This document shows, piece by piece, positions 1 through 50,400 of a DNA stretch of 64,000 nt. Numbering within the stretch: position 1 is the stretch's first letter; each line of letters starts with the position of its first letter. Under the pieces are notes generated by a model, which made no database searches, had not been told where the DNA came from, and saw nothing but the letters and a program-made list of their open reading frames with translations. A program made the translations under genes and the position numbers. Origin of the DNA: Amphiscolops sp. MND2022 (Eukaryota); contig OZ076409.1 in NCBI GenBank assembly GCA_964187785.1, positions 682,001-746,000 of the forward strand, in the 5' to 3' direction.

Positions 1-429
1 GGGACTCCATATACTCTTTTGTGCGTATCGCAGTAGTCTCCTTGACTGAACTTTCCGCACCTGATGCAGCGGTTCGTCGGCTTTCTTTTCTCCTCCGATT
101 TCTTTGGCAACTGAAACTTTATCGGTTTTGACGCTAGTTTTTTGTGTATTGTTTTTCCTTCGGACGTAGTTACAGTGTGTTTAGTTTCTGTTACCGCTGT
201 TAGCCATTTATTGGTTTTAAATTTACATTTCATGGCGTTTGGTTTGTTTTCCTTTTCAAAAAATTGATATTGTTTGAATTCCCGGCTTACCGATCTAACC
301 GTTTTCTTTGAGTCGTTAAAGATCATATAATCGGACATTTCTCCCTCGGAGTTGTAGATCGTAAACATCTGGAGCTCAGTAGGTTGTGCTAAAACGTAAT
401 TGGTCAATGTCTTTTTCCAATTAGAGAGA

Positions 430-1370
430 AGAAAGTCTGGCCGTCCGGTTGAATTAGTTATCGCTGTACGTGGTTTGCGTCCGCAGTGCATTTGAAATGG
501 CGTCATGTTTAATTTACTATGCGGGTTTTGTCTGATCGTTTTAATCGCTAAATTAACACTCTCTTCAAATGTTAAGCCGTCCGCCATGCTTGCTCTGGTT
601 AATGATTTAATTGTTCGTTTTGTTCTTTCCACTTGGCCGGTTCCCGTATGTAAATTCGGTGTGCATCGGATGCGCTTTATATTTTCTTGGTTACAAAATT
701 CTTTAAATTCGTTACTTTTAAAACAGCTACCGTTGTCGGTACGTATACTCCGTGGTGTTCCGTTGTCTGAACAAAACTTGGATAAAAATTTTAAAACTGT
801 CCGTGAATCGGTTTTTTTTAAAAAATTTGGGCCGTTGGCCATTTGCTAAAACGGTCGACTGCGACTAGAATATATACATCACCGCGTGTCTTTGATTTTA
901 TTGGACCGGCCAAGTCCAATTGGATTTCTTGGTTGGATTCAGATAAAATTTCCAATTTTTTTTTCTGTAGACGGTAATTGTGTTGTTAAGTTCCTACCTG
1001 ACGCCCTGCAGCTGGGGCAATTTTCAGTTTTTTCTCGTATTTCCCGGTACAGGCCGAGCCACCAGAATGCTGCAGCTGATTGATCCATCTTCGACGCTGA
1101 GGGATGTCCTTGGTGAAGCATGGCAATAACTGTTGATCGCATTGTTTCTGGTATAACTATTTTGTCGTTATAGAAGAGTAGGCCGAATCGGGTGGTCAGA
1201 TGGTGTCTATGTGGTCGGTAAGGGTAGAAAATTTCTTCGATCTGATTTCTTTCAAGGGCAGTAATAGCGCTTAAGATTTTCACATCTCTCGCCATTTCTT
1301 CTACCAGCATGGGTAAATTGAGTGCGAAGTCCTTTTCTGCTTTTTTCCTCAGCCCGTTCATTATGTTCAT
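430..1370 (-). pseudogene. Gypsy integrase (H2C2 zinc finger plus rve core), frameshifted
   Basis: ORF 939-1370 LHQGHP...CPSC; manual translation of 600-745 gives RTDNGSCF and CTPNLHTGTGQVERTKRTIK. Confidence 0.85.
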
Positions 1371-2424
1371 CGTCCAGGGTATTTGTTTTGACGGTTTGTT
1401 TCAGCCGTATCAAGTTGACGGTCTCATGTTTGCGGAACTTTTTGAGGGCACTGGTGGGGCATTTTTCTTGTCTAACAATGCTTGTTTGGTTTTGGTGTCT
1501 GACGGTTTTTGCACCATCCATGACTCGTGATTGTTTTGTTGAAATTCTTTCAACGGCGTCGTTCCCAGTGACTCGCAATAACTTGTAAATTTGTATGTTC
1601 AACTCAACAATTCTTTTTCGGACTTGTTGAGAAGGTCGATACTCCTGTATTATTTAGTTGTCTGTCCCTTTGGCGACAATTCTTGTCTTTTCGGGTTTCA
1701 GAAGTCTCTTTCTTTCTGCCCAGAGTCTGTATGCATCTAGTGAGTGTCCTCGTTTCTTGTAGATGAAACTTATCTCTATGCCGTTGACTTTGTCCATATT
1801 GGATATCGATGCGGATTTGTTTGAAAGTTTTGTCGATGAGATTTGATTAACACCGTTCAATGGTATTGAGGCTTCGAGCGATTGAGTTTGTCTATTTTGT
1901 TCACGCTTGCATGTGCCGCGCTGTGATTGGTCGGTTTTTTGTTTCGGTTTGGTTCGTTCTGCGAATCTTTTTATGCTTTCGTTCGTTTGGATGAAATCGA
2001 ATAGACCGTGTATTTGATTTATTACGAACTCTTCTTCGGACTCCGTTTCGTTTTGACCGCTAAAATTGTTCTCCGCGGCCGTCTCACCGGTGTTTACGAT
2101 TGGATGCCTGCTTAGATTGTCCGTCAACGGAATGTTTTTACCAGTTGTGTATTGAACATTTACATCGAAATGGCTCAATCTGTCTAACCACCGTGTTAAT
2201 CTAGCACTGTTCTGCTTGTGCGCCCTATTTCGTTTTAGCAACGGTTGTAGTGCCTGGTGGTCCGTTAACAAATTTACTCTTTTTCCGTAAACGTAATACC
2301 TAAAGTATTCCAACCCCCACAGCGCTCCTTGTAGTTCTAGTTCATTATTAGCATATTTCCTCTCACAATCGGTGAGGAATCTACTGGCGAACGCGATTGG
2401 CCTAAAGATTTCTCCCTCTTTTTG

Positions 2425-3663
2425 CTACAATGTTGCTCCAAGTCCCGTATTGCAGGCATCCGTCGTCACATAATTGTTTTTTCGTGGGTCGAAGTGAGCG
2501 AGGCTTGGTAATTCAGTTATCTCGTTTTTCAAATTTTCGAAATCTTCGTTTACTTCAGGCGTCCAATCCCAGCGGGTTTCTTTCTTCGGTAGTCTTCTCA
2601 TTCTATCGGTCTTCTTGGATAGATTGTTGATGAATTTTGACAGCTGTTGTATTGAGCTCAGAAAGGATTTGAGTTCTTTGGCGTTCTTTGGGGCTTTCAG
2701 TTTTGTTATCGCTTCTGTCTTGTCTTTTATTGGTTTTACCCCACTTTGATTGATGTGGTAGCCCAGCCAAGTTATCTCTTGTTCGAATAATTCGGTTTTC
2801 CTCTCACTCGCTCTGTATCCAGCGTTTTGTAACTTGGTGAGTACTTCCCGAACTTCACGTTCGTGTTCGTCGATTGTTCCGTTGGTTACACAAATAATGT
2901 CGTCCAGATAGACTGGTGTTTTAAATTCCAGCACTTTGTCGATGTGTTCCTGGAATACGGTGGGAATATCAGACAATCAGTGAAAACCTTTCTTGAATCG
3001 GTAATGGCCGGTGAAATCGCCGCCAATTCTCGAAAACACGCAGTGTTTTGCTGCTTCTGCGGTTAATTTTGCCTGTCCGTAAGCATAATCCAAATCAATC
3101 TTTGACATCCAAATTTCTCCACTGCTTCGGGTAATTTCTGCTGATTGTTTGCTGATTAGTTCTTCCATATTTGACATTGCCGCTTTCCTTTTGACACATG
3201 CCTCGTTCATTTTTCTCGAGTCGAGCGCTATTTTTACGGATTTATCTTCCTTTATTGTTGTGACAGCTGGTGAGACGAAACAGTGTTCCGTGGTTTTGTC
3301 TGCTTTTTCTAGATGTCCACTTTCGAGTAGTTTTTCTAACTCTTTCTTGACTCTTTTTTGAAAGTGTATCGGTACTGGTCGTCCCTTCTGTTGTATCGGC
3401 CTTGTGTCCCTTTTCAGTTGGAGGTCAATGGTTAGGTCTTTGATCGTGTGGTTGTTTTTGAATAGATCATTGTATTCGTCTACAATCTTCTGTCGTCTTT
3501 CGTCTGTTTCAATGTGTCGGATAATATTTGTGTTCTTGTTCCCTTGAGGTACGATTTCCAGTTTATCCAACCAGTCTAATCCCAGCAAGGGTTGGGTGTT
3601 TTTGTTTGCAGTTATTAATATGGGAAGTGCTACTTTGTTTTTTTTTGTTTTCACTTCGAGCAT
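2425..3663 (-). pseudogene. pol: Gypsy reverse transcriptase (in-frame stop at 2977)
   Basis: ORFs 2977-3663 and 2425-2976: PIQQKGRPVP, KIDLDYAYGQ, VYLDDII, WLGY. Confidence 0.9.
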
Positions 3664-4860
3664 GGCCTCGCCTTTGAAAATTATTGGATTTTTGTTTTTT
3701 GTTCACGTCTACAAAGCTTTTTGTGGTTTTGTGTACTTCCGCTGTATTGATTATAGGCGGTATTATCGGTACTGGAACCAGTGTCAAAATTAAATTCTAT
3801 TGGTTGTCCCTGGATCAATAATATCGCTTTGTAGAAATCAATCCGATTTATGCCGTTGACGGATTGGATATGGTCAATTTCGGGCCATGACTCGGAGTTG
3901 CTGTCCGTTGATAGTTCTTTTTGTACCCGGCTGACGGTTTTGGATTTACACACTTTGGCGAAGTGTCCCATTTTCCTGCACTTGTTGCATTGTGCTCTTC
4001 GTGCTGGGCAAATGTGTTCCAATGACTAGTTTGGTTTACCGCAGAAGCGGCAATTACGGTTTGATATTTTCTTTTTTTCCCGTTTCATCTATTTTTCGTT
4101 TCCGTGCTGGAAGTGAGTAGGCGACTTGTTCTTCGCTTGATGAACTTTCTAAATGAAGTTTTCGGTGTTTTTTGTTTGTCTTCTTGTCTCCGTATTCACG
4201 GTTGTAGTTATCTTGTTCGATGGTTTCAAGGACCATCTGGAGTTTCAGCGGTCCTTTTATGAATTTGTCTCGGGCTTTTTTGTCATTGATGGTTGCTCCA
4301 AACTTGTAAGTGATAATTTCTTCTGGTGTAATGCTGATGAACTCGCATTTTCTCTCAATATCCAGAAGTCTTTTCCAATACTCATCCACTGTTTCATTGT
4401 CTTCTTGTTTAATATTTAAAAATTGTGCTCGACTGTGGAATACATTTCTTGCAGGGATAAATGTTTTCTTGAAAAATTTCAGCAATTCTGGGAGATCAAT
4501 GTCTTTTAACTCTTTGCCCCACTGGCCTCTCATTATTTCGTGTTTGGCCTTGGGGCCTAATGCCCAGATAACCTCTCCCTTGATGTGGTACACCGTATGT
4601 GGGTCCATTTGATCGATACCTTGATCCATCAATTCATCCAAATTTCGGTTATACGTGAAGTGTATCTACTCAGAAATTTGCTACCACCACATTCGTGGGT
4701 TTATTTTGGTCAGGTCCGTCTCCCTGTCCGATAAAATTGGAATTTTATACTTGTTCTTCTCTAGTCGGTCTGCTGTTGTCTGGTTCATTATCGTCTGGTT
4801 CTCGGCCGGTTGGCCCGATTGTTCCGAGGTACTCGGGTCTGAATTGTTGTCCATTAGGCT

Positions 4861-6926: not shown

Positions 6927-8107
6927 TAAAAGCACAACCAGTGTGTTCAGTCGCTGAAACTAACAAACAACAACCGATGTCACAAAACAAAGAACCGTAA
7001 ACACCGAACAGCAATCGGAAACCATACTGAAGAAGGAGCAATATGCCAAAGACACAACGGAGAGGGTCCCGATTCTGGCATCAGTCCAGTAGGAACAGCA
7101 GTTAGGAAAGAAGAAGTTCCAGGCGAAAAGCCGAACCTCAAAGAGACTAACAAAAACCTTGACTGGCTTGGACATAATTTCAAGGTAAAGAAAATTGAAA
7201 CGGAGTCGTCAAGTATTGAAGAAGAAAGGTGCCTAACTGTCATAGAGATTTTACCACAACATGAACAACTACTCGTTAAATTTTAAGTGTTTGTTCATGT
7301 TTTTGTAGTTATGAAATATATCAATGCTGATTACTAATTGGCAATCAAATAAAGCAGCTGCGTTGTAATTGACCCAGTAGGAGTATATCCCTGTGGTGCA
7401 GTATTTTGGTTTTGTAATAATTATATTTACCTGTCCTTCTCGGTATAAAAAGGGGAGTGTGGTAGCGAAAGCCAATTCGACACTTGATTGAAACTCGATG
7501 TGTCACGTAGTAGGACAAAATAGGTTAGACATTTTAAACAAAATTTCAACCATCAACAAGCCATCATATTTTTCATTGGGATGAATTATCGAAACTTGAA
7601 CGAAGATTTAAATTGCAAAGTACAATTTATTCGGCAGAGCACTCACCGGAAAACATCCATGGCGAAATTATGCTCTTTACCGATAAAACTGCTGAACATT
7701 GAAAAATTTTGCTCCGGGAACTATTCCACAAAAAATCCTTTCCAGAATTATTGCAATGTAAAATGAAGTTTTAAATGGTAAATTTTAAAAAGTGCTGAAT
7801 ATTTGGCATATTTGAAAAAAATTAATCTCTTGCTTTGAAAAGTTTTTTTTACAAATATACAATACGACACTTTTTAATCGTCGAACTTTGTGGACAGAGC
7901 TCTACGCCTTGACTAATAATTCAGAATTTGTTTTCTGTTTATTTTTAAATTAAAAACATGGCAGTGGAAGATTACTTTCTGCTACCCCAATTTGTACGAA
8001 ACATCTTTTTTTTTGGGGGGGGGATTTGGATCGCGGATAATTAGATTGGTCATGACTGTGGTGGGTGTAGAAGGAAGAGAGGGCTGGTGGTGGTGGCGGT
8101 GGTGCAG

Positions 8108-8347
8108 ACAGCCTGACTGGGTCTTACAAGTTGTTCACCCTGACGAGGGAGCCCTTTGCGAGGCTGGTGTCGTTCTACCACGACAAGGTGTTGAGGATGC
8201 AGCCTTTCTACTACTCACGCATCGTCAGCCGCATCCTCCGCTCAGAGGACATGCTCCAACACGTGCCCCCACAAGCACACCAGGCCAAGCAGATGGGTCT
8301 CAGGGCCTCGTTCAGGGGCATGGTGAAGTACATCCTCAACCACCCGG
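8108..8347 (+). CDS. Sulfotransferase exon containing the 3'-PB motif
   Basis: ggtgcag acceptor; DSLTGSYKLFTLTREPFARLVSFYHDK...YILNHP; donor G|GTTGCC, phase 1. Confidence 0.85.
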
Positions 8348-11300
8348 GTTGCCACCCCCCCCCACTCTCGTCCTAACAAAAATAGGCCCATGCCTATTTC
8401 TGCTTTTAGGCTTTCATCTTCGATAATAGAAGCAATCATTTATATAGCGCACAATTAACCACTACCTCTTTACACCGCCTTTAATTCTTCTCGGACTAAA
8501 GAAAATATGTATAACTACTAAGCGTAGACTATGCGAAGCTCTCGGCGAACGAATAATTAACACTCGTTCGCTTCATCTCAATAACTCGACGTACGAAAGC
8601 ATAATTACTACTCGCTCGTTCCATCGCACGAGAGACGAATTGTTTTCGGCAGCTTGAGAAATTTAAATTTCACGCTTGTACTAATGCCGAACAAATTATC
8701 TGAATTTTTCAGTAGGTACTTGAATCGCGTACGAAAAATTGACTGAAAAAAGTTGAATATTTCAGATTTCAATAATATTCCTGCTATCGCAGAAATACTA
8801 ATAACGGGTCTTATTAGGTGGGTGACCATCATATCACATGTTTAGCACTCCCTGTGAATCTGTTCAGATCTGTACAGATCCTTACAACTATTCCAGGATT
8901 TGTCAAACATTAACTAAGCCAAAACGACCAATAAATTTTTATAGCGTATTCTGAGTAACCAGCAACTATCAAAGCTACTCAGTGCCTTGGAAAGTTAGTA
9001 CTTCAAATACTAAGGTAGGTAAAGTAATTTTCCAAAATTGGTAAAGTAGTTGAAAAGTCCAAAAATGCAGTACATTGGTTCCCTAGAAGCTCCCGGAAAA
9101 AGTTCTCTGAAGGTCTGTAAAAACAAGTTTTGAACATCTGTAAAGATCCTTGCAGATCTGCACCTGTCCTGAAGAAACAGTGACACGATCTTTACAGATC
9201 CTCAAAGGAATCAGGCTCACAGATCTGTACAGATTGTGAAGGAAAGCTCAACATGGGATAACGTTGCTTCATATTGCAGGAGATTATAGAAAGTGAATGA
9301 GGATTTATAACAATGATAGCATCAGAAGACACAATCAATACTCCGCTCACACATGTTTTTGCACTCGACGTAGAAATTGCAAGGGAAAAATTTAGGATTG
9401 AAGAATCGAATAGAAACTTGGTTTCATCCAGGATCTAAAGATTTGAACTTTTCATTACCATCACACCATACCTATAGTGTTTTAAAAGCAGGAGCCAAGC
9501 GACGTGTCACTGCATGACCATTAGGTGGCGATTTCGGGACTTGCTATTTTTCCCGAAAAAAGTTCTAATTGCGACGTTATAATTTCTAAACATTCTAACT
9601 TTTAATGATTTCTGGAAAACTTTTGAATTCAAATCGATTTCCGTTTTACCTGATGAGTATTTTTTGATTTCAATATCAAATTTGAACAGCAATTTTTCCT
9701 TTAAATCTTGAGTGACCCTATGCAACTTTGTTTCCTAGAACATTTTTTTTGTTTTTTCAAACTACGGACTCTTCAAAAATGGACCATTTTTTTCAGAAAT
9801 ACGCTCAGTGTCAAAGAACATGAATGCGGGCCTTTGTTTCCGTGCATCTTTGCAAAAATTAAAAAAATTAATCCATTGCAGAATTCGAACCCAGGTGATT
9901 TTTTTCCAGGCAAAGCCACGACAGAAACTTGTGACAACCACTAGGCCAAGTGGAATTTACCTTACACTTTAGATAGTAGAAGTAGACTCCAGAAGTCTAA
10001 AGAAAACGGTCGCAAAAGCCGCTTCAAAACTACAGCTAGCTTTTCTTCTTCTCGAAGAAAAAAATGTAATAAGAATCCGAGAGTGTACTTCAGCAACTTT
10101 GCAATTTGCAGCCTCTGCTCTAAATCATTAATGGATAACTGCAAGATACTTCGGGCGCTTTTCTGGGCGTATTAGAAACCTTGACAATAGCATCTTTTCA
10201 AACCATTGCCAGCCATTCAGTTTTGTTCGGCGGTATCTTTAATAGTTGTCTTGTAACAAAGTTTAGCTTATTGTCGTCATTATGATAATAATTCGATACA
10301 GTTTCCGGGAAGGTAGTGTTTTTAGTCGGCGCCTTTTCCTTTAGAAGGAAAAAAGTCCGACTACTACAGTGACTAGTTTTTTTTCGTGAGACAACAGAAT
10401 GGTATGCGTAGCGGTCACTTTTTTTTACCTAACTACTAAATTACTGGACTGGCAAGTGGAAACACATCTAAGTAGTGTAAAGGTCCCCCTTTCATGTACT
10501 CATTTTTTAACGTAAGATACAAAACGGACGGGACTATAGGGTCTCCACTTTGAATTTTTTTCGGCACTGTGCGACTTTTTGAATTTTTCTCCAAAGGGTC
10601 CCCCTTGCTACAAACTGGACTTTCAAAAAACTCAAAGGGTCCCCCCTTTTACAATTTCAAAAACTTTGCGCTTTTTGAGCCTTAAATATAGCGCCGACTT
10701 TAGACGTTCTCGTCTTGGTTACTGGTACAAGCACAGCAACACCTGGAAGGTTCCACCAACCCCCCCACGAGGTTCTACTTGTAGCCTAGGCCTCATGTTT
10801 CAAAAACACGATCGTCTGTCTGTGTGTAATAACAGCAGTGAATTACATGGTTTGCAACCCGGGGGTGTTTGCATGGGGGTGTTGGTGTGCAGAGAAGTAC
10901 GACCCGCACTATGAGCCGATGTGTTCTCTGTGTCAGTTCTGCTCCTACAACTACTCCTTCATCGGCAAGCTGGAGAACGCGGCCCAAGACTTGCCCGCTC
11001 TCATGCAGCACTTAGGATGGTGTCCCTCGACAAATAATGCTGCTCATTACAAAAATTTGAGCTCTTTTCTGTTTCCCCCACCACCAAAATTTTTGAAAGA
11101 AATTTCCTTAAAACTTTACACTAGGTTAATTAAAAGTAAAACCTTCTTTCATTACCGGAAGTTAACTTCTATTAGAGTAGTTTTTTGCTTGAACAAAACA
11201 TTGTTCACACATTTTGACTATAATTATGCTCGTATTAAGTGTTTATTGATAACTCAAAACAGGAAGCTGTTGATTTTTTATCAAAAAAGTGTGACTGCAT

Positions 11301-12659
11301 ACGGAAAAAGAGTGAACAAAGTTTGTATTTGAATCCTAAACTGTAACTCTGAGAATAAATTTTAAACTGAAGCTTTCTGGTTGGTACTCAAGTCTTTTTA
11401 ATATAAGATTTTCATTAATTTTCCAAAAAAATTTATTGGTGGTGGGGGGCAAACAGAAAAGAGCCAAAATTTGCCCTTTCCATCCGGACTACCAAACACG
11501 GGTACTAGGAGTAGTATCTACAGAAACAATCAACAAAAAATTGGCATTGGTGGAAAATCGATTACCAATGCTAATTTAAGAATTATGATTGGGGCAAAAG
11601 AACTAGATTTTAAACCATCCCAATGAACCTGAGCATTTTTGCAATTTCCGTTCAAAAAGTCCAATGGGGAATGTTTTTTTGTAACGCCGCTTTGCGGTCA
11701 TTCACTGCACAGGAACTTGTAATAACAACTGCTTTTAAATGCATATAAAAGCATGATTTTGCCTTTGATGACCTTGTTGTGTATATGTATATGGTTGCTG
11801 TTTTATATGCACCAAGGATTTTTCAGAAAATCATTTTTTTCCAAAAAGGGAGTTTTTGAAAAATCTAACAATTTTTCCAAATGAGGAAAGACTTTTCTAA
11901 TCTTTCGGACCAAATAAGGTACCAACAGAAAGTGAATTATAAACTGTGTCAAAATAGTGGGAACTGACAAATGATCCCTTTGTGTTGTCATCTGTGGAAC
12001 AGGGGGCACTTTTCTGTAAACCCCCACCGACGATTTTTTTTTCGGAAAATTAGTGGAAATATAACAAAAAGAGTTGAATAGAAACCAGAAAGCTCCAATT
12101 TCAAATTTATTTCGAATGTGACCGTTTGGGGTTGAGATACAAACTTTGTTCACACCATTTTTGCGTATGAAGTCACGCATTCTTGATTTTAAAATCAACA
12201 ACTTCCTGTTTTGAGTCACAAAAACAGTGAATAAAAACGTAATTATAGTCAAAATGTGTGAAAAATGTTTTGTTCAAACAAAAAACTATTCCAATAGACG
12301 TTAACTTCCGGTTATGAAAGAAAGAAGGTTTTACATTTGATTAGGCTAGTCCGAACTTTTTTAAAGGAAATTTACTTTCAAAAAATTTGTTGGTGGGGGG
12401 GGCGGGGCAAAAAGAGGCGACCAGGGACACTATTCTAGGCCTGAGTCGAGACCTGATACCGACCCACTCGTACTCCACGGTGAACGCGTCTCGAGAAGCA
12501 GTGATCGCACACTTCAAGGACATAGATCGCGATGACGTCATCAAGCTGCAGTACAAGTACTTCCTGGACTACAGACTCTTCCACTACCCCCTCCCTTCCT
12601 CATACCTGCCGCAGTTCCAGTTCAGGAAATCCAAGACCAGGAGAAAGTTCTTTTTCTGA
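8108..12659 (+). CDS. Carbohydrate sulfotransferase (Sulfotransfer_2, CHST11/CHST8-14-like), 3' three exons; N-terminal exons not found in window
   Basis: Motifs REPFARLVSFYHDK (3'-PB), DPHYEPMCSLCQFCSYNYSFIGKLE and LQYKYFLDYRLFHY; exons 8108-8347, 10893-11015 (or -11019), 12439 (or 12425)-12659 join in frame. Confidence 0.88.
8440..8810. repeat. Interspersed repeat, unclassified; second copy at about 54617-55575
   Basis: Shared tagcgcacaat...ctcggactaaag...ctactaagcgtagac...cgaagctctcggcgaacgaataattaacactcgttcgc. Confidence 0.7.
10319..10720 (+). mobile_element. HINE family 1, complete
   Basis: TTTTTAGTCGGCGC plus 5' hairpin; 3' GCGCCGACT subTIR followed by hairpin AGACG-ttct-CGTCT; no TSD. 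Confidence 0.85.
10893..11015 (+). CDS. Sulfotransferase exon
   Basis: gtgtgcag acceptor; EKYDPHYEPMCSLCQFCSYNYSFIGKLENAAQDLPALMQHL; 3' boundary 11015 (GA donor) or 11019 (GT donor). Confidence 0.85.
   Translation, partial: RSTTRTMSRCVLCVSSAPTTTPSSASWRTRPKTCPLSCST
11060..11465. mobile_element. MITE with 8-bp TSD (Merlin-like, inferred)
   Basis: TIR (a/g)GCTCTTTTCTGTTT..CCCCCACCACC; TSD AAAATTTG at 11052-59 and 11466-73. Confidence 0.8.
12005..12418. mobile_element. Second copy of the same MITE, opposite orientation
   Basis: Reverse-complement similar to 11060-11465; TSD GAACAGGG/GACCAGGG. Confidence 0.8.
12439..12659 (+). CDS. Sulfotransferase terminal coding exon
   Basis: GLSRDLIPTH...HFKDIDRDDVIKLQYKYFLDYRLFHYPLPSSYL...stop TGA; resembles the CHST C-terminus. 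Confidence 0.85.
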
Positions 12660-41400: not shown

Positions 41401-44400
41401 TTTTATAGGTAAGCAACCCGCAAGTTTTACTCCTCCAGTGAATTATACATACCTCCCTAATCCAAAAGCCAACTCTCGTCAGCAAAAGAGCGGCTTTCAC
41501 TTTTGATTCCACATACCGTATTTCTTCGAATAGAAGTCGCCCCTGATTAGAAGCCGCACTTAGCCTGAAAATTTTATCTTATAAGTCGCGGTTTGTAATT
41601 GACTTATTCAAAAGTTGAAAACAGTCATGGAGAACTTTAAAGGCATTTCTCATGTTATAACAGAAGCATCATCACTAGTTTCAGAAGTCTCAACAACTTG
41701 CATGGTATCTAAAATGCCATCGAAATGACTCGGAAACAAATTTTAAGAATGCAAGCCACCCTCGAATAGAAGCCGCCCCTGAATATAGGCCGCAAAATCC
41801 ATACGGGAAAAATCTTGGAGGGCGCGGCCTGTATCCGAAGAAATACGGTAGTAAAAAAACTCATTCCAAAAATGAAACTACAAATCGCTATAATAAACTT
41901 TTTCGATTGGTCAATTGCAAGTTTGCCAATAGTAACGGCCCCTAGGAAATTGCGGAAATATATTAAACAAATCGCGTTGCGTTCAAAAAGTTGCGTTTAA
42001 AATGTCTTGAAATCGCGGGAAAAGCCATAGTCTGAACAAATCGGTTGAGAGTGTTCACTTATTCAACTGATGAATACTTTTCGTTCAAAAATTTCAAAAT
42101 ACAAATGATCAAATTTTACAAATTAAAGGATAAAAACAAAAGCCATTCAATGGTTTAGCTTAAGGATCGACTGTCATCCTTGAGAACTTTGTCATAGTAC
42201 GAAAACAGTCTCTGCGTGCGTCGAAAATAAAAATGCATATTCCTACACTTTTCGATTTATCAAGTTACCGGGTAAAGTAGGCATGTTCTATGTAAACTAA
42301 ATTCAATTTCGGTGTTGTTTGATTTTAACGAAAAGCGCGGGAAAAGTTGCAAGAATGCGCGGAATTTTAAAATGATTGAAATGCGCGGGAAATCGCGGTA
42401 AGTTGCATTTCGGCCAAATAGTTGACGTTTCAGCCATGTCGTAGAAGGAATTCGAGCTATTCGGCTATTTTGAAATTAAAGACATATGTTCATCCCCTTT
42501 CATCGAAGTGGTGATTGAAATCACATTAAAATGCAGCCAGGGCTGGGTAAAACACAATAATTGAGTACAATAATTGCAATAATATTGAGGTCAATTATTG
42601 ATTGTTAAGAAAAAATAATTGCAATATCTGTGGGTGGAATGAATAATTGTTAACAATTAAAAGTGCTGAAAGTAGAATTTTCAAATATTTGCAACAAGCA
42701 AAGCAAGGACAACAAGCAAATATGCGTGCAGTGCGCCGGCTGGCAGAAGTGTGGTATTCGTTACCGTGCTGTTAATTACCCTACCCAAAATCAATCCCCC
42801 ATTCAGAGAAATTAATTTGTCTCAATTTCTCTTTGTTTGCACAAATACAACATCTTGAGTCGCGGTACTTGCAATACTAATTGAACAACTGTACGTACCT
42901 GGCAGGGCAGTGTAGTATTGCGTTTTGTCATCTTACATTCACGTTACTCATCTAAATTCGTCGGATCGTATACACGACTTGACAAAAACACAAATTTTAC
43001 TTTGTTTCTGCAATAATTTTAAGGATAAATGTCTTCAAGGGACGCTTTCAAATTGATTTATCAATCGACTGAGACCCCACATAGACACAGATGCATTAAA
43101 TGTGGGGCTGTGAGAATTCAGAACCTCAAACATGGGTACAATAACCTTATTAATCACTTGAATTCTTGCAAACCTTGTTGGAAAAACGAATTAAACTCTG
43201 TTTCTGATCAACAACCTCTAATATTTGTCTCTGAGCGAGCGAGAAACGTCTTTGGATGGATCGAGTGAGTTGTTCTGGAAGAAAGTATGAACGCAATGGA
43301 GCATACGACTTTTATTGAGTTCACACTAGCCGTGTTTGGCAAAAGCAAAGACGCCGTTTCTTTTATTGTTGGAGACAACGAAAATTTGAACAAGTCGATC
43401 GCAAAAATGATTGGCGTACCCTTGATTGGCTGTTACAGTCACAGACTTAACTTAGCTGTTAGAAAGTATCTGGAACCGAATGAACCCTTGCTTGAAAAGG
43501 TTAATTGAAGATTTGATGTGAAAATTTAACTTGTTGAATTGAAATTTTCATAAAATATATTTTTTAATTGAGTACAATAATTGTGGAAGCAAAAAATGAT
43601 AATTGCAATAATTGTGTACAATGGTAAAAATTGAGGGAATAATGATTGTACCCAGCCCTGAATGCAGCCCTTCTGTCCCATATGAAAGGAGGGAGTTTGA
43701 CTACATGCTCTCTAAGATACATGGGGTATCTACCGTGTTCTGCTCGCTCATTATAAGACACTTCCGAAAATAAGACACTTGTTAATATTTTGACTGCATA
43801 CTGAAAGTATAAGACAGTATAAGACAATATCCAATTATGTAAGTCAGTTTTCAATAATGACTGACAACAAACACAAATGACGTCACACACTGTCATAGAA
43901 TTGCATGTGTCAAAGTAAGACCTGTCCCGAAAATAAGTCCTGTAGCCACCAAACAGGTTTACTGATACTGAAGGGGAAAGTAAATAACTTCTAAATAAAT
44001 AACTTCTAAAATTATATTAGTAAATAACTTCTAAATTGCAATGGCATCTGGTAAATAACTTCCAAACAGCTATTTTGACGTAATTTTTTCTATAACGTCG
44101 TCAGCTATGTTCACATACTCCCAGTGCCATAAATACAGGAGCGAAGCGAAGCGGAGCGACGTGCCATATGGCCATGCCTCAATGTTGCTACTTGGCGAAG
44201 GGAGCGAAGCGACCGAGCCATACAACAAATATTTAAACCTCTTCAAATAACAGTTTTCGGAATAATAGAACGGTAAGTTTATTTTCGGAATAATGAATAG
44301 CAATCTTTTCTAGAATGATTTTAGAAGTTACCAGACGCAAATGCATATTAAAAGTTATTAACTAATATAATTTTAGAACTTATTTATTTAGAAGTTATTT

Positions 44401-47400
44401 ACTAAAATAATTTTAGAACTTATTTATTTGGAAGAGTTATAGTTCAAGTAGAAACAAGTAATTTTACTGAGAGTTCTAATACTGCTGCTGTTTCAGGAAT
44501 AAAGGGAAGCGAGACAAGAATCTATTTTTATAAAGACCATGTGGCAAAGTGGATGGGCCATCACTACGATGGTCTATAATGTTGCTGGTATCTAATGTAC
44601 AAATATATATATATCAACAACTACAAACAGAAGACTGCCATTGAATTGGTCATTTTAATTAATTAGATTGCTGTCACTTCAGTTTTAATAAATTGTTTTG
44701 TATTGCTCTTTTCTATTGTTTTGGTATGACAGTTTGTAGCCCCGTTACAATCCCCTCTGTTCGATTCTTGACGAGCTCTGTGGTTTGGGTTCAACATAAA
44801 TATCCTTGGGCTTTGACTGGTTCGGTTTACTTGTTTAGTTTTCGTCACTCGAGATTGTGATTACCTCTCTTTCTCCTTCTTCGTTTGTGTTTTCTATTCC
44901 ACATATCCGTCACTCGAGATTGTGATTACCTCTCTTTCTCCTTCTTCCTTTGTGTTTTCTATTCCACATATCATGACCGGGTTTCCATAGTAGTCAGGTG
45001 TGGTGCGGTTTCTTTTTGGTCGTTCATTGCTTGTATTGCTGTTTGTTTCGTTTTCACTTTCTGGTTCTTCTTTGTCAGCTGTGGTTTCTCCCAGTTGACT
45101 GTTGCTTTTGTTGGTGTTTTTGGTTGATTTGTTTGCTTTCTTTCGTTTCTTCTTTTGTCATTTTCTTCTTCGTCTTCTGACTCTAGTAGTTCTCTCAAAT
45201 TTGCGAGACGTTTGAATTCTGTTGGGATTTTCTTTTCCCTTCTTTTCTTTGTGTTTTGTTGTTCGTTGGTTTTGATTTGTTTTGCGTCCTTCTTGTGTTG
45301 TGGTGAATTCGTGTGTTTTGATTGGCTGCTTTGTTGGGCCAGTTGTTGTGGCTTCGCTATTTCTCGTTTGCTGAATGTTTGTGCTGTTGATTTTCCATCT
45401 TCTTTCATTGTCAGCGTGTGCTGTGTTTCGCCTGTGATTCGTCCTTTCTTTCGCTTGTAGACTTCTTCTAGTTTTGAGCCCCGTGCTCTTTCTCTGACCA
45501 TTATTTCTGAATCTTGGTCTTGGGGAAAATCACTCATCTCCAGTTCGAAGTCTTTGTCGTTATCTGAAACAGAATTGTAGTTTGTACTTGGTTTTGTAGT
45601 TATGATTTCTTTGATTGTAGTTAATTTTCTCCCTAATTGTAGTTCCGCTGGAAATATATTATTACTTTTTGGTGCATTTCGTATTGAGTATAATATTTCT
45701 GATAATCCGGTATTTTCTTTATCCAGTATTATTCTTTTGTTGGTTCTCAGTCTTTCGTTTATTGTGCGTATAAGTCTTTCTACTTTACCATTACCGCGGT
45801 GGTCGTATATGGGACATTTTATGTGTTGTATAAAGTATTTTTGGCAGAATTGTTTAAATTTGTTACTTGTGAATGCTGTTCCTGGATCTGTTCGAATTTT
45901 TCTTGGGATGCCGTTATCTGCAATATATCTTTCGAGGAATTCTATTACTTTATGGTAGTTGGGGCTCGCATAAATTTTGCGTCCGGCCAGCCTGTTTTAC
46001 TGTCGATTGATACTGTTAAATATTTCTTTGAACTTTTTGCTATTTTGAAAAGGCCAGCGAAGTCTATAGCAATTTCTTCATTTACTTCTTTTGGTGTTGG
46101 TAATTTGCCAAATTGTTTTTGATTTAACATTGGTTTTATTGACTTACCTGCTGCTCTGCATTCTGGGCATGTTTTGGTAAGTAGCGCGATGTCTCTGTGG
46201 ATCTTTGGCCACCAAATATCGATAATCTGCCTTAGCATTTGGTCACGTCCGGGGTGACCCCAATGTAGCGAATTTTTGATGGGAGTCTGTAAGTTTTTTG
46301 GTATTATAAGACGATCATCCATGTACAGCAGGTTATTTTCATCGATAGAGATTGAATTAAATCTTTCTCTCCAGGGACTTTCCAGAGCTTTGATTTTTGC
46401 TTTTGTAGGGCTTTTTACTAATTTGATTAGTTTTTGTAGATTTTCATCATCGTTATAATTTGCGATAAGCATGTTTTCACCAATTTTGTTGGCTATTTCA
46501 ACTTTCGATTCAAATTGCTTTGAGATTCGTTTACCTGCTAATGCGTTTGTTGAATTGTTCTGTTCCATTTTGGTCAGTTGCGTTGTTTGCTTGCTCGCGT
46601 GTGTTTGTTCACTCTTGCTGCGTCTATCTTCGCGGTTGAGTTTCAACTATTGCCGTCCTCTGATTGGTCGGTTGAATTCTTCAGCTAAAATACTATTTAC
46701 ATTATTTACATGGTTCACTGTGAACCAGTTGTTCCATAATTCTTTAGCTTTTACTCTTTCTCCTTCTATTGGTGATGGATGGCGTGAAAGGTAGTCAGCT
46801 ATGCCAATTGTCCTTCCAGGTGCGTGAAATATGTCAAAGTCGAATGGTAGTAGTCGATCTACCCATCGAGTAAGTCTACTCGAGTAGATTTTATTGCCTT
46901 TATTTCCTTTCAGCACTGTTGCTTGTGCCTTGTGGTCTGATACCACTTGGAATTTTATTCCGTATAAGTAGTTTTTAAAGTGCTCAATTGCCCATACAAC
47001 AGCGAGTAGTTCCAATTCATTTATGGAATAATTTTCTTCTAGTGGCGTTAAAAATCTGGATGCGAAATGTATTGGTCTCCATCCAATTTCGTCTTGTTGT
47101 TGTAGTACAGCGCCTAATCCGGCTTTACTTGCGTCACATATTATTCGGATATTTTCGCTTTTCTTGAAGTGTCCCACTTCTGTTACCCTTTTTACCTGTT
47201 CGTTTATTTAAAAGCTTTTTCGTGTTTCTCCTCCCAGTTCCATGGTTTATCCTTTTTTAGTAAGGGTCTTAGTGGAAAACAAAGTTGGGCTAAATTCGGT
47301 ATAAATCTGTTCATCTGGTTTACAGCTCCCAGATAAGAACGTAATTCTTTTAGATTTTTCGGTCTAAGTTTTTCAGTTATTGCTTGTATTTTCGTATTTA

Positions 47401-50400
47401 TTGGGCTGATTCCGTTTTGGGTTAATTTATATCCCAACCATTCAATTTCCTTTTGTGCTAAATTACATTTTCCCATTTTAGCCTAACGTTCGCTTTATTT
47501 AACTTTGTTAATACTGTTTTTACCACTTTGTAGTGATTTTCTTTTGATCCCTTTGTTACTACTAGGATGTCATCTAGGAACACGTACGTGTTGGGGATGT
47601 TTGCTAATTCAGTGTCCATGGCTTTCTGGAATTCGGTTGGCATTACTGTTAAGCCGTAGAAACCTGTTACAAATTTGTACGTTCTGGTGGCTTTCCCTCC
47701 TATCATTTGAAAATTACAGTGTTTTGCAGTTTCTTTATTTAATGGTACCTGTCCGTACGCGTATTGCATGTCAAGAGAAGTATATCATGGTATTCCTTCG
47801 TTTTCTGTATCTAGTTGTTCTGCTACCATATCGACAAGGTGCTCTAGATTCGGCATTTGGTATTTGTCTTTTACGACTTCTTTGTTTAATGCGAGTGCGT
47901 CGAGTGCTATTTTCACACTCTTATCTCTTTTCACCGTGATTACTATCGGCTGAATGAATTGTTTGTCCGTTACTTCTTTTACTCTTTCAATGTGTCCTTC
48001 ATGCAACCCCCTTCCTATTTCTTTTTGTACTGCATCTTGCAGTTGAATGGGTACTCTTCTACCCTTTTGTTGTGTTATTTTTGCATGTGGTTTAAATTCT
48101 ATTTTGACTTCATGGCCTATTAATTTCCCTTGTCTTGTAAATAGCTCGTTAAATTGTTCCTTTATTTTTGTTTGTTCGTTCACTTCATTGTGAATGCTCT
48201 TTTCGTTCTCTTTTTCTATTTTACTGTTTTTGCTTGAATTACTGCTTATTTTATAAATGGCTTGTTTACCTTCACTTTGATTGGGTGATACGAATTTGTA
48301 GTTGAAAGCCTTCAGCCAGTCTCGTCCAATTAACGATTTTGCTCCCTTCTGTGCGATTAGTATTCTTGCTTTGTGGAGTTTACTTTCCCCAACTTCCAGA
48401 TGGCAGAATATGTAGCCCAATAAATCTAGTCTCTTTCGATTGAAATCCACGTATTCCTCATCGCTGGGTAGTTCCCTGATGAATAGTGTTTTTCGTTTCA
48501 TTATTTTCTTCAATTCATCTATCTCGAAGATGGTTACTGGTGATCCTGAATCGACCATTGTCTGGAATTCATTGCCGTTGATTTTTCCTTTCATCGTGAA
48601 GTGTCCATTTTCGTCACCTTCTATGGTTAGTACTACTTTTTCTTCGTCTACTATTGATCCTTCATTTTCACTGTCGCTTCATTCGTCAATTCGTTGGATT
48701 CTTTGTGGTGGTTTTGCGACCTTTCTGCTTTTTGCAAAATTTCCAGCTCCTTTTGTTTGGCAGCATTTGGCGAAGTGTCCCTTTTTTCCGCATTTCATGC
48801 AAGTTATTCCTATTGCCTTGCATTCTTTCAAGTGTTGTGGAGTGAAGATTCCTTCGCAGCGAAAGCATTTCTTTTGAGGTCCCCATCTTTTTGCATTCTG
48901 ATTTATGTTATTTAATTCGGACGGTTCTGCTTTTATTTTGGGTTTTTCCAATGTTTCGAACGATTGTTGTCTTATCGTTCCCTCTTCATAGGCTATTGCA
49001 AATTGTATGTTGTCATTTACATTTGCTTTGGGTTCAGTACACAGCTTTTGCTGTACTTCTTTGTTGTTCATATTCACTATGAATACATCTTTCACTAAGC
49101 TTTCGGTTATTGCTCCAAAGTTGCATTTTGAGGCCAATCCGTTCAATTCGTTCCAGAATTGTTTGAGTGATTCTCCTTGTTTTTGTTTTCTGGATAGGAA
49201 TTTGAATCTATCCAATGTTTCGTTTTTTGGTTTCTCGAAACATTCTTTGCAGTTCTTTAGTAAATCCGTTAGATTTACTGTTGCTATATTTGTCGTCGGA
49301 AACTTGTCTGCAATTGTTTTTCTCCCTGCAGCTCCCAATGCCAGATATAAGACGCTAATTGCCTTCTTCATTGCGGGTATTTCGTCTAAGTCTCCCATTA
49401 GACTTTTTTCTTTTGCTCCCGTCGTCTTCGTCAGATCAGATACTGAGATATTGTTTTTCGCCATTAAGGCTACCTCAAAGAGGTCTATCCACTTTTCCCA
49501 TTCTAATGTGGGTGTTTTTGATGCGTCAGTCCAGTAAGTTGGTAGACCTGCAATTGCTTGCGGTCCTCCTGAATGTTCAGAAGCTCGCAGCGCCATGTTA
49601 TAGTTCAAGTAGAAACAAGAAATTTTACTGAGAGTTCTAATACTGCTGCTGTTTCAGGAATAAAAGGAAGCGAGACAAGAATCTATTTTTAGTCGGCGCT
49701 TCATGAAGTGAAACGCGACTATTATAGTGACTCTTTTTTTTCTATCCACACGAACTGACCAAAATAGTTCTTAAAAGTTCTACAAAATATTATGGTGTCA
49801 AATAGCACCATTTGGCCTAGCGAACTGGACCAAAATGGTTTTACCTGTTTTTCCGCGTAACATATCATACCGGGCGAGACCAAAGAGTCCCCCCTTTCAA
49901 TTTTTTTCGGCACTGCGAGACATTTTTTTTCGGATTTTTTTTTCGAATTTTTTTTTCCGCAAAGGGTCCCCCTGCATTTTTTTTGATGTTTTGCGACAGA
50001 ATGGATGTTGGAAAATCCCAAAGGGTTCCTCCTTTCAGTTTTTTTCGGCATTGTGAGATTTTCTCCCGAAAATAAAAAAAAATTTTTTCTTCAATTTTTT
50101 CATGTTTTGCGACAGAATGGATGTTGAAAAACCTCAAAGGGTCCCCCTTTCAGTTTTTCGGCATTGTGAGACGTTAGCGCGCCAGGGGCTCGCGGTAGCG
50201 AGCCCCGGCGCGCCACTCGGTCCATTTTTTTAGTATGTAATTTTTTTCAAAAAAAAATTTTTCGAAAAATTTTCGAGTTTCGACTACTGTAAACGAATAC
50301 TTGACACTTGGAAGTCTTTTTGCTATTTTTGAGCCTTGGATATGGCGCCGACTTGGGCCGGTCCCGGCTTGTTATAAAGACCATGTGGCAAAGTGGATGG

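Follow-up and report, generated by a model that had tools for sequence, protein, structure and literature searches.

The 64,000-nt window analysed here, part of contig C1 of the 1.07-Gb eukaryotic assembly G000 (Amphiscolops sp. MND2022), carries a Sulfotransfer_2 gene whose catalytic domain is interrupted by 1.4 kb of DNA. Judging from its relatives, this DNA is very probably an insertion into a once-continuous exon and not an old intron. According to the explanation that we favour, although as a whole only tentatively, a stretch of foreign DNA (about 585 bp) would have inserted into a single coding exon. It was most likely a non-autonomous DNA transposon of small size, bounded by terminal inverted repeats (TIRs) of 13 nt and with a TA (or TAG/TAGG) target duplication. 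The gene would have survived by removal of the insert as an ordinary U2-type GT-AG intron with splice sites inside the termini of the element itself. The donor would be ATG^GTGTCC (11019/11020; the caret marks a boundary) in the left repeat, and the acceptor CAG^GG (12424/12425) on the inner border of the right one. The mRNA would thus keep 16 nt of the element and the 2-nt duplication, adding six residues (HLG-WDTILG-LSRD) to what may be a surface loop. Later on, two copies of an abundant miniature inverted-repeat transposable element (MITE) that makes 8-bp duplications would have entered the intron, the second of them exactly on the acceptor, which was duplicated, and splicing may now be less efficient or proceed via a neighbouring AG.

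The exons on either side of the insert are both open, as had been noted in a first-pass annotation of this DNA, and their frames are parts of a PF03567 (Sulfotransfer_2, carbohydrate sulfotransferase) gene according to Pfam. Exon B matches PF03567 with 42.7 bits (E 9.5e-11), exon C reaches 21.5 bits, slightly below the 22-bit cut-off, and is 72% identical to a paralogue (tblastn). All look-alikes of the gene in the protein atlas are PF03567 carbohydrate sulfotransferases. Exons A and B contain PKAGSTS and TREPFARLVSFY, which, going by their consensus, we take to be the 5'-phosphosulfate-binding (5'-PSB) and 3'-phosphate-binding (3'-PB) motifs, respectively.

Two close paralogues on contig C12 have the whole catalytic domain in a single open frame. 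Across the site of the insert they read ...LIQFLGLNETIYPVHSY... and ...LIQFLGLNKTVSPVHSY... (over a longer stretch ...FLGLNETIYPVHSY... and ...FLGLNKTVSPVHSY...), compared to ...LMQHLG^LSRDLIPTHSY in the window. Four further, distant paralogous loci also cross the site in single open frames, and a seventh copy, on contig C4, ends before it. The check suggested in the first-pass annotation, whether paralogues lack an intron at this codon, thus has a positive outcome for all six paralogous loci that cover the site. Both candidate products were furthermore aligned with 61 homologues (P0001, P0151, and P0002-P0060), 60 of which have no extra residues at this position, the sole homologue with an insertion being P0052. 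The spacing of the homologues is the one left by deleting the insert plus one TA (11015-12436), a deletion that, as had been predicted, gives back CAC TTA GGC CTG. The same spacing is found in P0002, a 326-aa database protein which is not encoded in G000 and whose best matches there are 43-67% identical.

It might be argued that an ancestral intron was kept in this gene and lost in all other family members, the appearance of TIRs and a target-site duplication (TSD) being coincidental. Wholesale loss is conceivable, since the C12 paralogues are also devoid of the two other introns of the gene. The C12 copies, however, seem to retain an acceptor shortly before the domain, in the position it has in the window gene (xQ^K/R..LWF), and are therefore not simple retrocopies, and the four distant paralogues are uninterrupted as well. 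Within the TAGG repeat there are five equivalent ways to cut the junction, and GT-AG, GC-AG, or AT-AC ends result from none of them. Since no canonical pair yields a scar-free junction, canonical splicing of the present sequence never produces the family spacing, and an ancestral canonical intron lost elsewhere fails to explain it. We regard this possibility as highly improbable; the best explanation is an insertion that occurred later than the split of the gene from its closest paralogues.

Both borders of the insert are readable. On the left, ...CAG CAC T-TA is followed by GGATGGTGTCCCT; 1.4 kb further on, AGGGACACTATTC is followed by TA and, from 12438, GGC CTG, in agreement with the first-pass annotation. 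The two 13-mers are complementary at 11 of 13 positions, as described there, and together with the TA on both sides form a 15-nt inverted repeat of 87% (inverted-repeat pair I15). The direct repeat is equally readable as TA, TAG, or TAGG, of which the TA reading brings the termini into register. These two sites are the sole matches of the degenerate 13-mer within the window (0.21 expected). Inverted repeats of comparable size arise by chance several times in the inverted-repeat listing of the window, and an unconstrained alignment would not pick the one of the insert. It is due to its position at the TA pair that the 11/13 repeat counts as evidence: of the 580,287 TA...TA pairs in the window with a spacing of 300-3000 nt, 125 have at least 11/13 in the adjoining 13-mers (2.2e-4, an upper bound, as real transposons are included in the count), and the approximately five possible registers within the duplicated TAGG raise the chance to ~1e-3. 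Further similarity of the ends after removal of the nested MITE, which had been claimed as well, was not recovered: with both MITEs taken out, the best arm alignment comprises the 11-nt core only and scores 17 vs. a shuffle median of 16.

Copies of the insert were searched for in the whole 1.07-Gb genome. TA plus the 13-mer occurs six times, including the two sites described here, vs. three times for the reversed control, and inspection of the other four sites revealed nothing shared beyond the motif. The left terminus (26 nt), searched with a tolerance of up to 3 mismatches, matches only itself. The 527-nt centre of the insert as DNA query returned only the self match and, for an old repeat that lies within it, short hits of 45-210 nt (67-89%). 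This old repeat was considered as the element's own family and rejected, as its copies do not exceed ~350 bp and neither GTGTCCC nor GGGACAC lies within 3 kb at any of the 11 loci. For the unique core (294 nt), the genome did not yield a source copy at any other place. The insert was originally proposed as an introner, i.e., an intron gained from a TIR family in this lineage, and the lack of other copies with these TIRs had been named as counter-evidence. This is what the genome search yielded, termini and core being single-copy, and the family claim has to be abandoned. Regarding the marks of introners, TSD and TIR are present at the border and the site is intron-free in paralogues, but multiple copies are lacking; the insert does not belong to an introner family.

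A singleton is also what would be expected of filler DNA from double-strand-break repair, with TAGG as microhomology and a chance repeat of 11/13, and such DNA could play the role of an intron too. Arm similarity does not extend past 11 nt, and a short AGG-type direct repeat arises from consensus splice sites and repair junctions alike; in Daphnia, repair-mediated intron gain has reportedly been linked to such short direct repeats. The positional chance of 11/13 at a TA pair is nevertheless only ~2e-4 to 1e-3, and copied filler would need a genomic source copy, which the 294-nt unique core does not have. Filler DNA is hence considered rather improbable, and we infer that the insert was probably a TIR transposon.

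The two later MITEs which the element had been said to host were both found, at 11060-11465 and 12005-12418. Their target duplications are identical at 8/8 (MITE1) and 7/8 (MITE2) positions. Compared to a consensus of 8 copies, MITE1 shows 6.0% substitutions and 4 indel events, and MITE2 shows 9.2% substitutions and 7 indel events relative to a consensus of 11 copies. The family (~406 bp, termini GGCTCTTTTCTG...CAGAAAAGAGCC) is very abundant, with 4528 and 5178 first-look candidates in searches with MITE1 and MITE2, respectively, 40 of which were scored in each case. Of 19 other copies examined, 14 are flanked by 8-nt sequences that are identical at 7 or 8 positions, thus the family makes 8-bp duplications, which are a hAT trait. 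With this duplication and a high copy number, the nested elements qualify as hAT-like MITEs, a kind of element marked by short inverted termini and a lack of coding capacity. Once both are removed, the original insert amounts to ~585 bp. The family occurs in two age classes, with copies ~90% and ~84% identical to the window copies (loci L002-L008 and L022-L031). A MITE2 match that extends to 12434 (locus L031) was inspected in the alignment and dismissed as a weak chance extension past the family end ...AAAAGAGCC.

Both splice readings put forward earlier (11015^12439 and 11019^12425) are in frame and free of stops. The rare GA donor invoked for the first of them is, however, not needed, because close to the junction there are four GT-AG pairs that preserve the frame, all of them without stops (Table 1). 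Use of acceptor 12424 places the start of exon D at 12425, and use of acceptor 12438 places it at 12439. The target duplication of MITE2 overlaps the right terminus of the insert and duplicates the acceptor. When one duplication copy is removed, the pre-MITE2 3' end reads ...ccctttgtgttgtcatctgtggaacag^GGACACTATTCTAG^GCC. The corresponding acceptor ...ccctttgtgttgtcatctgtggaacag^GG is G/T-rich, like the acceptor ...gttggtgtgcag^AG of intron B/C, and is in frame with GT 11020, the donor of which (G^GTGTCC) resembles the other donor of the gene, G^GTTGCC. Because the pre-MITE2 acceptor looks normal and is in frame with this GT, we think that the original intron comprised 11020-12424, with both splice sites within the termini of the element and six residues added to the protein; these sites, as well as the splicing itself, we infer from the sequence.

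A bolder variant is the scar-free removal of a GA-AG intron (TAG^GATGGT...TTCTAG^GC, 11016-12438), which was the lead reading of the first-pass annotation. The pair is in frame and results in exactly H-L-G-L, i.e., the spacing of 60 of the 61 homologues, and among the acceptors of today's sequence TTCTAG^G is the better one. Some introner families have 0-40% GA 5' sites according to a survey (PMC9860276). GA donors are very rare outside such lineages, though, and this one fits only 5 of 9 consensus positions, while a canonical GT is situated 4 nt downstream. In addition, there is no sign of tolerance for non-canonical sites in this genome, intron B/C of the same gene being GT-AG. A GA-AG intron is therefore very unlikely in our view; if the insert is spliced, then with good confidence as GT-AG rather than GA-AG.

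Table 1. Positions of the gene parts, of the insert with its nested repeats, and of the candidate splice pairs (numbering of the window, except for exon A; MITE, miniature inverted-repeat transposable element).
Feature	Position	Strand	Remarks
Exon A	G000:C1:679782-679970		2 kb upstream of the window
Exon B	8104..8347	+	Region of the 3'-phosphate-binding motif; Pfam PF03567, tblastn to paralogues; 5' edge approximate
Exon B donor	8347/8348	+	G^GTTGCC, read from the sequence
Intron B/C	8348..10892	+	GT-AG, phase 1; unique edges, high-copy repeats nested within
Exon C	10893..11019	+	Ancestral end 11015; end 11019 if GT 11020 is the donor
Left TA direct repeat	11013..11014	+	Alternative readings TAG or TAGG (11013-11016)
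Left terminal inverted repeat	11015..11027	+	GGATGGTGTCCCT; holds candidate donor GT 11020-11021 and a second GT 11022-11023
MITE1	11060..11465	+	Perfect 8-bp target duplication AAAATTTG at 11052-11059 and 11466-11473
Single-copy core of the insert	11474..11767	+	Covered only by the self match
Old low-copy repeat fragment	11768..11971	+	66-89% identity to 11 other loci
MITE2 duplication, upstream copy	11997..12004	+	GAACAGGG; original pyrimidine/T-rich tract retained, with a second copy of the CAG^G acceptor (AG 12001-12002)
MITE2	12005..12418	-	MITE1 family, inverted; duplication GAACAGGG/GACCAGGG
MITE2 duplication, downstream copy	12419..12426	+	GACCAGGG; holds candidate acceptor AG 12423-12424
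Right terminal inverted repeat	12423..12435	+	AGGGACACTATTC
Right TA direct repeat	12436..12437	+	With G 12438, second candidate acceptor TCTAG^
Exon D, last coding exon	12425..12659	+	Stop TGA 12657-12659
Candidate GT-AG pair	GT 11020 (first intron base) + AG 12424 (last)		+18 nt vs. the scar-free junction (HLGWDTILGLSRD)
Candidate GT-AG pair	GT 11022 + AG 12438		+6 nt vs. the scar-free junction
Candidate GT-AG pair	GT 11020 + AG 12445		-3 nt vs. the scar-free junction
Candidate GT-AG pair	GT 11022 + AG 12450		-6 nt vs. the scar-free junction

Several observations weigh against a transposon-derived intron that is still in use. The element stands alone in 1.07 Gb, where neither its termini nor its core were found a second time, and its arms are alike over the 11-nt core only (local alignment, both MITEs removed), so its transposon nature turns on 13 nt plus a 2-4-nt repeat. 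The best-looking donor (11020) is out of frame with the acceptor that looks best today (12438). MITE2 lies right at the proposed acceptor 12424, which now follows a purine-rich MITE end with 4/20 pyrimidines. The upstream duplicate AG 12001-12002 keeps the original tract, but its use leads to a stop 26 codons into MITE2. Exon D on its own gives weak tests of constraint (4 vs. 3 unique changes; probability of being intact ~0.08). The constraint tests presented below assume that the MITEs entered after the outer element was in place, that their divergence from a small consensus is a measure of their age, and that P0002 evolves at a typical rate; as an alternative to later entry of the MITEs, it is possible that an already composite element was moved by cut-and-paste. 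Finally, searches of the protein database with exon B, P0002, and exon D as queries (the latter two covering lengths of 179-571 and 40-128 aa) revealed no protein of the window gene. Both C12 paralogues are present there as predicted proteins; the absence of a model for the window gene is weak evidence either way.

Based on such observations, a dead or dying gene has to be considered, in which the insertion or the later hit by MITE2 abolished the correct mRNA and the open exons are a relic not yet lost to decay. The duplication GAACAGGG/GACCAGGG places the insertion of MITE2 at the acceptor, the upstream AG runs into the stop, the pyrimidine tracts in front of today's acceptors are poor (4/20 and 9/20), and the database that holds the proteins of both C12 paralogues has none for this gene. 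Moreover, the related C4 copy looks truncated, and exon D alone could be intact by chance (P ~0.08-0.4). On the other hand, the frame is open throughout the four exon pieces (771 nt), which retain intact binding motifs. When neutral decay was simulated at 6.0-9.2% divergence, the probability of no stop was 0.195-0.085, and that of no frameshift was 0.21, 0.046, and 0.002 at 0.0025, 0.005, and 0.01 indels/nt, respectively; the indel rate of the MITEs themselves, which are homopolymer-rich, is 0.010-0.0175 per nt. The joint probability of neutral decay since the MITE insertions without a trace in the frames is at most ~0.01 at plausible indel rates.

Replacements at conserved sites of the protein show no excess either. 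The window gene differs at 20 of 115 sites that are identical in three relatives, and P0002 differs at 16 of 111 sites at which two paralogues and the window agree. With 9.2% neutral decay added, ~34 differences are predicted vs. the 20 seen (P = 0.002); with 6% decay P is 0.06. These P values are slightly conservative, as the baseline used was 16/127 and not 16/111. Protein identity to the paralogues is ~50%, and synonymous sites are saturated. Open frames together with a normal rate of protein substitution moderately suggest that the gene is still constrained, and by these indirect tests it is probably alive. A dead gene is thus an unlikely, though serious, alternative. As to the insert, we lean slightly towards its being removed at present to give a working mRNA, and the duplication of the acceptor by MITE2 may have impaired this splicing. 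A rescue of the downstream acceptor by looping out MITE2 through RNA folding was examined and rejected (z = -0.40; 33 of 100 shuffles were as good).

The gene (G000:C1:679782-694659) differs from its relatives in further respects. It has three introns within the catalytic domain, compared to one unbroken exon in the six paralogous loci, and its three candidate donors (GTTGTC, GTTGCC, and GTGTCC) look alike and are unlike the usual GTRAGT. Intron B/C is absent from the C12 paralogues and from the distant paralogues. For intron A/B, 12 GT-AG combinations keep the frame; its position is apparently common to the C4 copy (G000:C4:21737120-21738557), which is without the C-terminal half and possibly a pseudogene. 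Past the conserved part of exon A, at the exon end, there is a Lys/Thr-rich low-complexity run (HKKTTKNKKTTKKKTKRN...; L041 3971-4100), which has no counterpart in the paralogues.

The possibility that transposons also bound other introns of the gene was considered and rejected for intron B/C, as its edges are unique sequence and its repeats begin 47 nt into the intron and end ~170 nt before its acceptor. Two high-copy repeats other than the MITE family are located there, at 8395-8700 and 10500-10722 (2764 and 2377 first-look candidates, respectively); the second includes a ~115-nt unit (10605-10722) that occurs in many loci with 91-93% identity and is therefore probably young. A perfect 10-nt inverted repeat, CCCGGGTTGC/GCAACCCGGG, is found at 8343-8352, spanning the donor of intron B/C, and at 10853-10862, 30 nt before the acceptor; due to the palindrome CCCGGG it contains, it is possibly a chance occurrence. 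On a larger scale, the AT skew is approximately -0.32 to -0.34 over several kb at window positions 1-4000 and 44001-50000, unlike in the rest of the window.

Single transposons that inserted into exons and are removed from pre-mRNA through cryptic sites in or near their ends have reportedly been described for maize Ds/dSpm alleles and C. elegans Tc1. These are recent mutant alleles in which splicing was measured and is often partial. The insert resembles them as a one-off insertion (TA-flanked in case of Tc1) with GT and AG near its ends and small in-frame changes of the product. In contrast to them, it is old, as its nested MITEs are 6-9% diverged, and apparently fixed, and its splicing is predicted. 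A Tc1/mariner-like element or Stowaway-like MITE would fit the TA reading, in which the termini are in register, but TAG or TAGG are equally possible, and related copies in the genome are lacking. The likeness to hAT-like MITEs concerns the 8-bp duplications of the nested elements, not the outer insert.

With the introners of Micromonas, Aureococcus, Symbiodinium, and others (PMC9860276; PMC11282704), the insert has in common a short non-coding element, inverted termini, a short target duplication, and an exon that is unbroken in relatives. The closest system is given by the introners of Aureococcus, which carry both splice sites and add 12 bp (four residues) in frame (PMC9860276), compared to the 18 nt and six residues predicted here, where the splice signals would also lie inside the termini. 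Introners, however, are families by definition, and at least 4 similar introns per family were required in that survey, whereas the insert is the sole copy in 1.07 Gb, its splicing is predicted, and its host is an animal; among animals, introners were found in only two groups in the survey (PMC9860276). In Fritillaria borealis and Amoebophrya, non-canonical introns derived from MITEs have inverted repeats and target duplications at their borders and are excised exactly with one duplication copy (PMC11282704), which a scar-free GA-AG removal would parallel. Those organisms have very many such introns and altered splicing machinery, whereas here a single case is faced with an intron B/C that is GT-AG. 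Singular cases of spliced transposon insertions are known (PMC11282704), and the insert remains one plausible example of this known process.

The origin of new animal introns is poorly documented. As a plausible single transposon-derived intron, the insert would be a clean case, given the unbroken ancestral exon in paralogues, the readable edges, and the minimum age provided by the nested MITEs. It is tempting to speculate, with some reserve, that a solitary transposon insertion became a constitutive intron here, with its own termini providing GT and AG and six residues to the protein, and that selection on the gene persisted after the MITE hit. If true, one-off events beyond specialised introner families can create animal introns, and the locus would preserve, with a date, a single birth of an intron from a transposon in a metazoan, with no introner family behind it. 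Since a MITE has duplicated its acceptor, it would also be a natural experiment on the extent to which a 3' splice site can be damaged and still be tolerated.

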